A stretch of 64,000 bases of DNA from a virus (taxonomy: Duplodnaviria; Caudoviricetes). The notes under the pieces are model-generated. The model was not told the origin of the DNA. It made no database searches and saw only the letters and a list, made by a program, of their open reading frames with translations. This document shows, in pieces, positions 252 through 12,202 of this stretch. The stretch lies in the IMG/VR virus record IMGVR_UViG_3300020577_006271, positions 64,001 to 128,000 of that record; one strand, given 5' to 3'. Positions within the stretch are counted from its first letter, which is position 1; each line of letters opens with the position of its first letter. A program made the translations under genes and the position numbers.

Positions 252-270
252 TTTATTTTTCCTTATTTTT

Positions 271-1125
271 TTAAATAATTCCCGCTAACTTTTGTAAACG
301 GTTTCCCGCAACAATTGGTTGGGTTGTTTTCGTAATCGTTCTACTTGCAGAAGCATTTTCTTTTAATGCCTTCAAACCAGTTGTCTCCTTATATGATTCA
401 GTAAGAGTTGTATAAATCAATTTTGCTTCTTTAATAGTACTTGCTCTATCAAATGCCGATAACATTTTTGTTTGTTGATTTTCACTAAGTTTGAATTTTC
501 TGTTTAGATTGGTATAATATACCAATTTGGTGTTCAACAATGTTGTCTCAGTCAATCCAGTTCTTAAAATTTTTATTGCCTTGATAGCTTCTGCCAATTT
601 TAAGTTAGTCTTGTGTAAATCTGATTTCAAATTACGGTTTTCTTTTCGTAATTTATAAGATTCGGCCATTTCTGGTTCATCTTCTGCCATTTCTTCATCT
701 TCCATTTCTCGTAAAATTTCGTCCAACTCGTCGTCAGTTACTGCTACGTCATCAGTTCCATAATCAGCTGCTAATGGATCAACTGGAGCCGCTGCTACTG
801 GTGCTGCAGGAGCTACTGGAGCTACTGGTGCAGGTGCTGCTAACGGATCTTCTTCTTCTCCATCTAATTCACGTAGAATTGATTCTAATTCAAGGTCATC
901 AGTGTCTTCAAATTCAGTGTCTTCAAATTCGTTTTCTGTAACTGTTTCATCTGACATAATGTCATCATTTTCTAAAACTTCATCTTCAGCTTCTTCAGCC
1001 AATTTGCTAGAAATCATTCTTCGCAATGGAGCTTCAAAAGATTCTTCAAGAATTGTTTTTGCATTGGCGATAGCTGCTTTTTGAACTGCCCTAGCGTCTG
1101 CAATTGCTTCGTTTAATAAACTCAT
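271..1125 (-). CDS. Prohead core / scaffolding protein
   Basis: Acidic coiled coil with many L/I-x-E sites, C-terminal RLQKLAGI, directly upstream of MCP. Confidence 0.8.
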   Translation of the reverse strand: MSLLNEAIADARAVQKAAIANAKTILEESFEAPLRRMISSKLAEEAEDEVLENDDIMSDETVTENEFEDTEFEDTDDLELESILRELDGEEEDPLAAPAPVAPVAPAAPVAAAPVDPLAADYGTDDVAVTDDELDEILREMEDEEMAEDEPEMAESYKLRKENRNLKSDLHKTNLKLAEAIKAIKILRTGLTETTLLNTKLVYYTNLNRKFKLSENQQTKMLSAFDRASTIKEAKLIYTTLTESYKETTGLKALKENASASRTITKTTQPIVAGNRLQKLAGII

Positions 1126-1220
1126 TGTTATTCCTTTCGTAATACCTAAGTCTAATGGAGATGTGACTTAATAAGGATTGTATTTGTGATTGATCCGTTA
1201 TTCAAAACTGGATATTATTT

Positions 1221-1230
1221 ATATATAGTT
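1221..1230 (-). promoter_or_regulatory. Putative late promoter (WACTAWWTAW motif)
   Basis: AACTATATAT followed by AAATA, so it contains T4-type TATAAATA; intergenic upstream of scaffold-MCP; the motif recurs before many late genes. Confidence 0.6.
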
Positions 1231-10227: not shown

Positions 10228-10262
10228 GTTCTTCCATTATTAGTAATAAATAGTAATTTAGG

Positions 10263-11876
10263 TTATAATAACCATAATAATGATTCAGATTTACCATTTA
10301 CACGCATTGTATAATAATTTCCAGTTGACATTGCAGGTTTATATACGGTTTTACGAATGTTAGTTAAGGCCATCCGGTTAAGTTCAATACCTTTAGATCT
10401 TAATTTCAGGGCGGTATCTATTACAAATAATGCAATAGCCATGGCCATAACTAAATCGTCATTATATCCTGAATCGGCCTGAGCTTTTCCGTCTATCCAT
10501 TTAAATGCTTTAAATTGATTATGTAAACGGTGTGACCTATAGGTCAAATATCTTGAGTTTGCTTGTGTAGCCTGTTGTAATTTACCAATCATGGTTGGTC
10601 TCGTCTTAGGAGATGTGGTATGACCCGGCACCATGTCTTCTTTATTCTTTAGGTCGTAGTTTTTCGCAATGTGAATATTGGTGTCCACATATGGATCATT
10701 TCGAACCGTATAATATAAATTTTCATAGTTAAGCTCTAATACCGATTGAACTGTCGACCATCCAACATTTGCATTTTCTATTGCCAATAGTGCATTATTC
10801 CACTCGGTTGCAACTGATACTAAAATTCTAGCAAATTCTGTAGTACCCAATAGTCCTTCCCACTCTGCAACTTGTTCGCAGGCATCTACATCGACGACAA
10901 TAAACGTAGATTTATCTGATCCATCGCCCCTAGCTACATCCGCAGCAACAATGTAATTTTTTCCAGATTCTGGATATTTCCATATCCAATATTTTGATTC
11001 GGCACCACGCATTTCTATGGGATCCTTGACCGTATTAGCTTCATACCATTGAATATCTTCTGGATTGATGACTGTATGCCCAGATGCTTCAAATGATACA
11101 TCATTTTCTTGTGCTGCAGCTCTTTCTGATGATGCCAACGCTGTTTGTTGTTTTCTCCAAGTTTCATCACGTTCAGGATGTAATTCCCACGATAGTCGGA
11201 TTGGATTAAATTTTTCAAGCCCTTCGATTACGTCACCACTAAGTGCTTTAGTCCATAGGTTGTAAAATAAACCAGACGCGCCATTGGGTGTCGATAGTAT
11301 GATTGCCGAACCACCGGTTGCAAGTGTAGATTGTGCAGAAGTCCAAATTTCTTCAAATGCAGGAACGAATGCAGCTTCATCTATTATTAATAAAGACAAT
11401 GACTTTGAACGTGCAGCATTTTTATTACTCGAAACTGCTTCAACCGATGATCCATTAGTAAGAATTAGTTGGGTTTGGTTGTTATTAACAATCTGGGCAT
11501 GTTTTTTCAAATATGACGGCAATCCATCATACATTACTTTAACTTTACCGAATAACTCTCGTGCAATTAGCTGAGTAGTTGCTATAATCAATACTTTGAA
11601 TGACTCATTGCTAATTATTTTTGATATTACATGTGCCGCACATAATGTAGATATACCCATTTGCCGACCCTTACCAACAATGTTGAAACGGTGTTGATCA
11701 AACTGTTTAATGGTGGACTCTTGATATGGATATAAATTGAACGGTATTTTGCCTCTTAAAGGATGTTCAATCTTACAATGCTTGCGAATTAAATATATTG
11801 GATCTTCAAAACATTTTCGCTTTTCGTTTTCAATAACATCCTGCAGTTGCTTATTAATATTTGCCGAATCGGCCAT
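10263..11876 (-). CDS. terL: Terminase large subunit
   Basis: LYPYQ, Walker A KGRQMGIST, Walker B LLIIDEAAF, STPNG, nuclease AADVARG and DDLVMA. Confidence 0.95.
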   Translation of the reverse strand: MADSANINKQLQDVIENEKRKCFEDPIYLIRKHCKIEHPLRGKIPFNLYPYQESTIKQFDQHRFNIVGKGRQMGISTLCAAHVISKIISNESFKVLIIATTQLIARELFGKVKVMYDGLPSYLKKHAQIVNNNQTQLILTNGSSVEAVSSNKNAARSKSLSLLIIDEAAFVPAFEEIWTSAQSTLATGGSAIILSTPNGASGLFYNLWTKALSGDVIEGLEKFNPIRLSWELHPERDETWRKQQTALASSERAAAQENDVSFEASGHTVINPEDIQWYEANTVKDPIEMRGAESKYWIWKYPESGKNYIVAADVARGDGSDKSTFIVVDVDACEQVAEWEGLLGTTEFARILVSVATEWNNALLAIENANVGWSTVQSVLELNYENLYYTVRNDPYVDTNIHIAKNYDLKNKEDMVPGHTTSPKTRPTMIGKLQQATQANSRYLTYRSHRLHNQFKAFKWIDGKAQADSGYNDDLVMAMAIALFVIDTALKLRSKGIELNRMALTNIRKTVYKPAMSTGNYYTMRVNGKSESLLWLL

Positions 11877-12202
11877 TATAAACCTCCCAAGAAATATCCT
11901 ATGGCAAGTGCTATAATATAATTAATTATTTTAGGTTTTTGGGAAACTGGGTTTAAAATTTCACCATAGGTACGCAACTGTAATTGCTGTATAGAATCTA
12001 TCTTTGTTGAACTGTTTCTAAAATTCAATTCTAAACTGTCTTTGATTACATATTCTTTGATTATTTCCTGAGATATAGAATCCTTTTTTTCGAGATATAC
12101 GATATATCTGGCGGCAAATTTAATTTCATCCTGTGTTAATGTATCTTGACCTATTGAAAAACTGCTAATAAGGCATAGGCTTAAAATCAAAATTAGTTTC
12201 AT
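11876..12202 (-). CDS. Secreted/membrane coiled-coil protein (possible spanin component)
   Basis: Signal peptide, coiled coil, C-terminal hydrophobic helix; overlaps an upstream TM protein. Confidence 0.4.
   Translation of the reverse strand: MKLILILSLCLISSFSIGQDTLTQDEIKFAARYIVYLEKKDSISQEIIKEYVIKDSLELNFRNSSTKIDSIQQLQLRTYGEILNPVSQKPKIINYIIALAIGYFLGGL

Follow-up and report, generated by a model that had tools for sequence, protein, structure and literature searches.

A late gene block with bS21 in its head operon

The window analysed here is a 64,000-nucleotide stretch, bases 64,001-128,000, of the linear virus record IMGVR_UViG_3300020577_006271 (162,683 bp, about 88% complete). The genome is that of a T4-like, 163-kb phage, and its head operon carries a gene for a divergent ribosomal protein bS21. 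A first-pass annotation of the window had proposed that this protein, together with Shine-Dalgarno (SD) motifs largely confined to late genes, provides a ribosome-level early/late switch. The excess of SD motifs on late genes is confirmed and goes beyond chance, and the interpretation as a whole is partly supported.

Gene calls were mechanical and made no use of SD information. An SD motif was defined as GGAGG, AGGA, GGAG or GAGG at -18 to -4 from the start codon. Genes were classed as late from their position in the virion block, and the late/non-late split was drawn in two ways, by fixed blocks (88 vs 143 genes) or by marker-gene blocks (78 vs 146). The head module contains the following features.

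260-265, minus strand: SD motif TAAGGA of the major capsid protein (MCP) gene, 8-nt spacer; the gene starts at 251 and extends past the window edge
271-1125, minus strand: scaffold-type protein between protease and MCP, an ortholog of gp067 of Flavobacterium phage vB_FspM_immuto_2-6A (immuto), with a putative function assigned from position
1132-1138, minus strand: scaffold SD GAAAGGA, -9.8 kcal/mol, 6-nt spacer
4160-4165, minus strand: SD AAAGGA of gene 2526-4154, whose Thr/Gly-rich product looks fibre-like by eye
6567-6572, minus strand: SD AAAGGA of gene 5481-6557, kept in the ortholog of relative L011
6561-7187, minus strand: prohead protease (Peptidase_S77), no SD motif
7214-7417, minus strand: divergent bS21, 67 aa, co-oriented within the head operon, with an alternative start at 7402 and an SD-free leader
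7491-7601, minus strand: unlisted 36-aa open reading frame (ORF) directly upstream of bS21, below the ORF-list cut-off, with an AAGGA SD at 7606-7610
7603-8421, minus strand: conserved 272-aa head-module protein, no SD
8434-10227, minus strand: T4-like portal protein, no SD motif
10263-11876, minus strand: terminase large subunit (TerL)
11882-11888, minus strand: terL SD GGGAGGT, -10.9 kcal/mol, the strongest of the late block, 5-nt spacer

The SD motifs that the first-pass annotation had listed before the MCP, scaffold, 4154, 6557 and terL starts are all present. The terL motif is kept in few relatives (5/56). Separately, immuto gp067 (L012, 25627-26868), which corresponds to this scaffold-type gene as its ortholog, is annotated as 'DNA polymerase phi-like'.

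SD motifs are enriched before late genes

The remainder of the window supplies the rest of the late block and a non-late block for comparison.

21886-42751, minus strand: remaining late block in the window, with SD-led starts at 22182, 23541, 24414, 25114, 30090, 30761, 37008 and 42751
42732-43442, minus strand: sigma-factor-like protein (Atlas lead only), no SD
48901-63856, plus strand: non-late control block with exonuclease, folE, polB halves, queD and clamp loader; SD before 1 of 23 genes
60955-60960, plus strand: GGAGGT ahead of gene 60968, the sole SD of the control block

Here too the listed motifs were found, namely TAAGGA before 22182, 24414 and 25114, GAGGA before 30090, AGGA before 30761, AAGGA before 37008, and GGAGGT as the plus-strand exception. 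No SD precedes 48949, folE, polB (56236), 59368, queD, the clamp loader, 43442 or bS21, again as described. The gene at 42732-43442 had been called a late sigma factor; it is indeed SD-free, but its sigma-like character is a lead from the Atlas, and it has no Pfam or PHROG match. The embedded primase and SbcCD genes just below the 21886-42751 block lack SDs.

Within the window, the motif precedes 13 of 52 minus-strand genes vs 1 of 23 on the plus strand. Over the whole genome, it occurs before 25/88 virion-block genes vs 7/143 others when fixed blocks are used (Fisher 9e-7), and before 25/78 late vs 6/146 non-late genes with marker-gene blocks (p=2e-8), which bears out the claim that SDs lie mainly on late genes. 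Pairing energies by gene class and comparison with shuffles, which had been proposed as a check, give the same picture. A predicted pairing energy at or below -4 kcal/mol is found for 34/88 late vs 9/143 non-late genes (p=1.5e-9). Shuffled late genes yield 4.3 +/- 1.8 motifs vs the 25 observed, whereas non-late genes are at shuffle level (7 observed vs 4.3, p=0.13).

Starts were called mechanically and a TAA stop can seed TAAGGA, so the asymmetry might be an artefact that stems from start calls, from the context of stop codons, from base composition or from strand. However, control windows moved 20-40 nt upstream carry motifs at 1-5 of the 88 late genes, and internal ATGs carry one at 6%. The enrichment persists when only ATG starts, only products of >=100 aa or only genes with homologs are counted, and it holds in each of the three intergenic-gap classes. 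A strand effect is excluded, since the same strand holds 60 non-virion genes at genome 1-34.5 kb with only 2 motifs among them. Orthologs in other genomes show the pattern again. Taken together, these controls exclude such an artefact, to which we give almost no credence.

The GGA core peaks at -11 to -7 from the start codon, and the sites are mostly AAGGA, with the AGGA nearly always lacking a following G (present in 1/22). They are short and weak, with a median of -5.8 kcal/mol and only 4/78 reaching -7. Short N-terminal tags, of the MIKFKDIL type and longer, are common to 21 genes, 11 of which have an SD, a share above the late average. One of the plus-strand SD exceptions also bears a tag typical of many late-block genes.

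Window 21886-25114 and 37324-40420; genome 18-55 kb and 150.7-152.3 kb: tagged genes, two of them in the plus-strand block

The phage bS21 protein

The product of 7214-7417 is a divergent ribosomal protein bS21 (PF01165). Its match to Pfam S21 (PF01165, E=6e-4) lies under the gathering score, but its best PDB matches are bS21 chains, its top Atlas feature matches are S21, it shows the conserved KPS core, and PF01165 is found in a relative (P0004) at 69% identity. According to Jha 2021 (PMC7797042), Tyr54 and Ile55 contact the 16S tail, and the Bacteroidetes are marked by Ile55 together with a C-terminus that is less basic. Alignment to the Flavobacterium johnsoniae chain (7jil_z) places Tyr61 of the phage protein on Tyr54 and a Lys on Ile55, and the C-terminal part is basic (pI 10.5). 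Hence the tyrosine of the Bacteroidia type is present, whereas Ile55 and the weakly basic C-terminal part are not.

Retention of this tyrosine had been raised as a caveat to the switch. The tyrosine is indeed retained, but this is not fatal to a role for phage bS21, because in F. johnsoniae ribosomes a loosening of the bS6 or bS18 contacts frees the anti-SD tail with bS21 still bound and rescues weakened SDs (PMC13000457), and because relatives with or without the tyrosine share the late-only pattern. In one close relative, Lys replaces Tyr54, yet the scaffold and capsid genes carry SDs. Loss of Tyr54 was rejected as a general mechanism, since the Tyr-bearing G000, G003 and G008 are also late-only. 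A link between an AAGGA-only register and Tyr54 was likewise rejected, the register being clade-specific. The SD share is lower in aromatic-type loci (0.30 vs 0.44, with kinship ignored). Residues 54-55 do not account for the whole of the SD pattern, because the co-oriented locus L513, with host-like Tyr-Ile, has head SDs.

The bS21 gene itself is SD-free though its neighbours are SD-led. As first described, its leader has no SD; the extended SD of the autoregulation type is absent at both candidate starts, and 0/22 aromatic-type phage bS21 genes are preceded by an SD. No homologs of bS18, bS6 or S1 were found in the approximately 88% complete genome.

Late SDs and bS21 among relatives

We compared 16 genomes or long fragments and, separately, 156 distinct head loci. 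Mostly three SD patterns are found among the genomes. Late-only SDs together with bS21 occur in this phage, G003 and G008 (Tyr kept), and G004 and G005 (Arg), with motifs on 31-38% of late and 4-11% of non-late genes; for the four relatives the values are 31-38% vs 6-11% (p<1e-3 each). Genome-wide SDs with bS21 are found in G009, G011 and Microcystis phage Mel-JY01. Neither bS21 nor SDs are present in immuto, G019, G020 and G021, where 4-8% of late genes have motifs, under the mock level. Three others, G010, G012 and G015, fall in between or are too incomplete to place. In immuto, SDs precede 9/213 genes and none of the capsid, scaffold, sheath and tube genes. These four genes have SDs in nearly all bS21-bearing genomes and in 0/4 of immuto, G019, G020 and G021. 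In close relatives, replication regions hold 2/25 and 1/27 SDs, vs 5/10 and 7/16 in head regions. In a separate observation, G008 (L185-L193) has three tandem tail-tube paralogs, only one of which has an SD motif.

The head loci show the same association. A scaffold or capsid SD is present in 72/74 loci with bS21 vs 11/82 without. For MCP alone the values are 34/38 vs 1/14, and for the scaffold 38/46 vs 1/19. On orthologous genes of relatives the motif may be AAGGA, GGAG, GAGG or GGAGG, each a portion of the sequence complementary to the anti-SD, and whichever of the two registers is used, the GGA core is found at -10 to -11. The product of ssb is typically plentiful without being late. This gene has no SD in any of the five late-only genomes, and an SD precedes it in G009 and G011; therefore timing is favoured over abundance. 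When the tree is rooted on the antisense class described below, SDs are missing from three lineages without bS21 (immuto with L156, L340, L114), and L340 and the L114 clade are nested among bS21-bearing lineages.

The bS21 gene lies on the same strand as the head genes here and in all related loci. To sample the other arrangement, host-like bS21 loci were located by a DNA pattern for host-like bS21 and then required to have head genes. These loci have SDs before 10/362 genes (mock 20), and antisense bS21 loci have an SD on 0/9 MCP and 0/15 scaffold genes. The antisense-type contigs form a separate portal clade and were matched to the phages of Chen et al. 2022 by layout, not by accession. The idea that any phage bS21 accompanies SDs was thus rejected; bS21 by itself does not suffice, and the phages of this type to which the first-pass annotation appealed are SD-free. 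Phage bS21 seems to come in two classes, of which the co-oriented one carries the SD signature. The absence of late SDs from the Chen-type class fits the view of Chen et al. that phage bS21 still blocks the anti-SD (PMC9723584).

Host signals

A Bacteroidota host, as had been assumed, is likely from promoter, leader and gene-sharing signals. The Bacteroidota promoter element TAnnTTTG occurs 20 times in non-late upstream regions vs 7.7 expected, and TATAAT is not enriched. Leaders are A-rich and, as in immuto, adenine is most frequent at -13 to -10. Upstream adenines are a feature of Bacteroidota leaders (PMC7797042). The best cultured matches of FolE are in Cellulophaga and Flavobacterium phages, and the closest cultured phages by TerL are Mel-JY01 (44.9% identity) and immuto (43.5%). 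The SD sequence is not diagnostic of a Bacteroidota 16S tail (A 107 vs T 103 before AAGGA).

A GTDB portal search gave no host and returned only phage contigs binned in unrelated metagenome-assembled genomes (MAGs). Two family contigs lie inside bacterial MAGs, L268 (NHHP01000001.1, the Pelagibacter MAG TMED166) and L270, probably through binning contamination. The first of these has bS21 and SD-led head genes.

Other features of the genome

Three late genes without an SD have a TAATTATA/TATTTAT-type motif whose end lies 2 nt ahead of the start codon ATG. Late genes with such a motif <=15 nt upstream have an SD in 0/6 cases, and the late transcripts of these motif-led genes are possibly leaderless.

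Window 8421 (the 272-aa gene) and 39867, and genome 47335, minus strand: genes led by the TAATTATA/TATTTAT-type motif

In the control block, DNA polymerase B is divided between two ORFs with a small ORF in between (window 56149-59317). The folE, queC-like and queD genes (window 51427-61608) suggest 7-deazaguanine DNA modification. Twelve tRNA genes lie outside the window at genome 141,979-152,938, one of them called with an 8-nt anticodon loop.

A possible ribosome-level late programme

In Bacteroidia ribosomes, the anti-SD is sequestered in a pocket formed by bS21, bS18 and bS6 (PMC7797042). Loss of bS21 frees the anti-SD but aids strong SDs only, and ribosomes lacking bS21 initiate poorly on SD-less and weak-SD mRNAs (PMC9976891). 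The interpretation that we put forward, tentatively and with a degree of confidence that stops somewhat short of probable, is that phage bS21 makes ribosomes SD-permissive and thereby raises the output of abundant virion proteins, acting as a gain and not as an on/off switch. The host would be a member of the Bacteroidota with its anti-SD hidden in the bS21/bS18/bS6 pocket. Pre-replication and replication genes, as well as the bS21 gene, have SD-free A-rich leaders and would be read in the host style. The bS21 gene sits in the head operon and would be expressed with it, presumably late, and its product may enter new or exchanged 30S subunits. There it could act as an SD-permissive paralog that keeps the general help with initiation, and not as a mimic of bS21 loss. 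The 16S tail might no longer be held, with Ile55 and the weakly basic host-type C-terminus replaced and Tyr54 remaining. Short AAGGA sites would then add initiation strength for capsid, scaffold, sheath, tube and tagged internal proteins, giving a gain in late output for one third of late genes.

More broadly, the co-oriented head-operon class of bS21, as distinct from the published host-like antisense one, might turn SD-blind Bacteroidota ribosomes into SD-reading ones without loss of Tyr54, and so run a late programme at the level of the ribosome for the virion proteins made in greatest amount. We offer this extension as a conjecture that is still somewhat less than probable. If it is true, then the commonest phage-encoded ribosomal protein gains a defined function, and the phage makes a specialised ribosome; if it is false, SD content still sorts host types within this phage family. 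The mRNA-steering role proposed for phage bS21 has so far had neither mechanism nor target signal. The late-only SD signature supplies a candidate signal, which is testable with existing F. johnsoniae reporters and mutants.

Several observations weigh against this interpretation or narrow it. The first-pass annotation stated that several late genes lack an SD, which is correct for the portal, protease and 272-aa genes, but this was understated; about two thirds of late genes lack one, and an on/off switch is excluded because they are the majority. In F. johnsoniae with truncated, Y54A or depleted bS21, a weak AGGA had virtually no effect (PMC9976891), and for this reason freeing the anti-SD is probably insufficient by itself. 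The association between bS21 and late SDs among relatives switches labels only four or five times on the tree, which leaves 1 to 5 independent contrasts, too few for independent-pairs or sign tests to reach significance. One bS21-less lineage has head SDs when the tree is rooted on the antisense class (L275, L285, L290), with AAGGA on scaffold and capsid. The members of this clade (L072/L275, L285, L287, L289, L290, L302) are larger relatives in which two antisense ORFs separate the protease gene from the scaffold gene; bS21 was not found in the head module or on the fragments by which the clade is represented, which are only 5-29% complete. Conversely, L080 and the 484-kb jumbo phage LR756508 have a co-oriented bS21 with no SDs on scaffold or capsid, and L082, L098 and L513 have a host-like Tyr-Ile bS21, yet some head SDs. 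As to the host, the best matches of RNR beta, QueC and the TGT-like protein give no clear signal. Non-late SDs are at mock rate here and depleted in immuto, a level that hints at a host class other than that of immuto.

These observations give some room to a different explanation, in which the host is only partly SD-blind (as in Bacteroidales, Sphingobacteriales, Cytophagales or a neighbouring Fibrobacterota-Chlorobiota-Bacteroidota (FCB) group), SDs simply mark abundant proteins, and bS21 is a passenger kept for purposes such as ribosome supply, with bS21-less clades living on strictly SD-avoiding Flavobacteriales. We consider it unlikely, though it deserves serious attention. Bacteroidia other than Flavobacteriales have SDs on several ribosomal-protein genes (PMC7797042), the genome-wide SDs of G009, G011 and Mel-JY01 imply that the family includes SD-using hosts, and the mock-level non-late SDs, which are depleted in G019 as in immuto, agree with it, as do the bS21-less clade that keeps head SDs and the scarcity of independent contrasts. 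However, ssb would be expected to carry an SD in late-only genomes, and it does not; the bS21 gene is SD-free amid SD-led neighbours; and crAss001, which has a Bacteroidales host and no annotated bS21, shows neither a late excess (9/38 vs mock 12) nor a capsid SD.

It is also conceivable, although we judge it improbable, that another factor frees the anti-SD late in infection. A different phage protein could target bS18, bS6 or the bS21 of the host, or the host bS21 could become diluted after shut-off; phage bS21 would then be neutral or would merely repair bS21-depleted ribosomes. Retention of Tyr54, the freeing of the tail by changes in the bS6 and bS18 pocket (PMC13000457), and head SDs that occur without a local bS21 or beside a host-like Tyr-Ile bS21 would all be compatible with such a factor, and McNutt 2023 speculated that phage products promote bS21 exchange. 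Nevertheless, the poor initiation of bS21-lacking ribosomes on SD-less and weak-SD mRNAs would harm two thirds of late genes, no candidate factor was found, and the approximately 88% complete genome lacks bS18, bS6 and S1 homologs. A further alternative is that AAGGA is a site for a CsrA/RsmA-type phage translational activator or repressor and not an SD. The near-absence of a G after AGGA and the lack of preference for a Bacteroidota-type extension are in its favour, but the variation of motifs within the anti-SD complement and the fixed position of the GGA core make it very improbable.

Comparison with known systems

Earlier publications already place phage bS21 close to head genes and propose that it favours the mRNA of the phage (PMC9723584). 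Neither in Chen et al. 2022 nor elsewhere did we find SDs of bS21 phages analysed by gene class, in a literature search that covered few subscription papers. New here are a Tyr54-retaining late-only case, the SD-free Chen-type class and the bS21-less clade with SDs as a counter-example. This phage resembles the freshwater Bacteroidetes myoviruses of clades a-e of Chen et al. 2022 (PMC9723584) in having bS21 within 5 genes of TerL, portal, protease and MCP, an aromatic residue 54 and a GC content of about 32%; a Bacteroidota host is predicted for those clades and is likely here as well. Unlike those clades, its bS21 is co-oriented instead of antisense and divergent, with Lys at 55, its genome is about 163-185 kb instead of 293-331 kb, and its portal belongs to a different clade.

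Gene order and the head, tail and replication modules are shared with immuto (Immutovirus, NC_055915, 160 kb), whose TerL is 43.5% identical. The shared order and core proteins, at 43-55% identity, amount to a family-level resemblance to Immutovirus-like T4-module myoviruses. Unlike this phage, immuto has no bS21 and no SDs on virion genes of note. Mel-JY01 (PP395634) is of the same family, with a co-oriented bS21 in the head operon and a TerL 44.9% identical, but it has genome-wide SDs (late 40%, non-late 25%), and its bS21 gene is SD-led and encodes Lys at position 54. Mel-JY01 (L013-L016) was deposited as a Microcystis phage, and it has strong TTG-n-TAnnTTTG promoters (20 vs 0.8 expected) and an immuto-like gene order; it may in fact infect a companion bacterium from the FCB group.

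The closest cellular parallels concern bS21 as a determinant of mRNA choice. In Francisella tularensis, mRNA choice is altered by a bS21 paralog (PMC9578407); these paralogs are cellular, belong to another phylum and are not a phage timing device. In the autoregulation of F. johnsoniae rpsU, the state of bS21 governs SD-dependent mRNA choice (PMC7797042, PMC9976891, PMC13000457, PMC13000453), as is proposed here. The host system depends on losing bS21 and on a single SD of 13 bp (below -13 kcal/mol). In the phage, by contrast, a paralog is added, the SDs number about 25 and are short (about -6 kcal/mol), and the bS21 gene lacks one.

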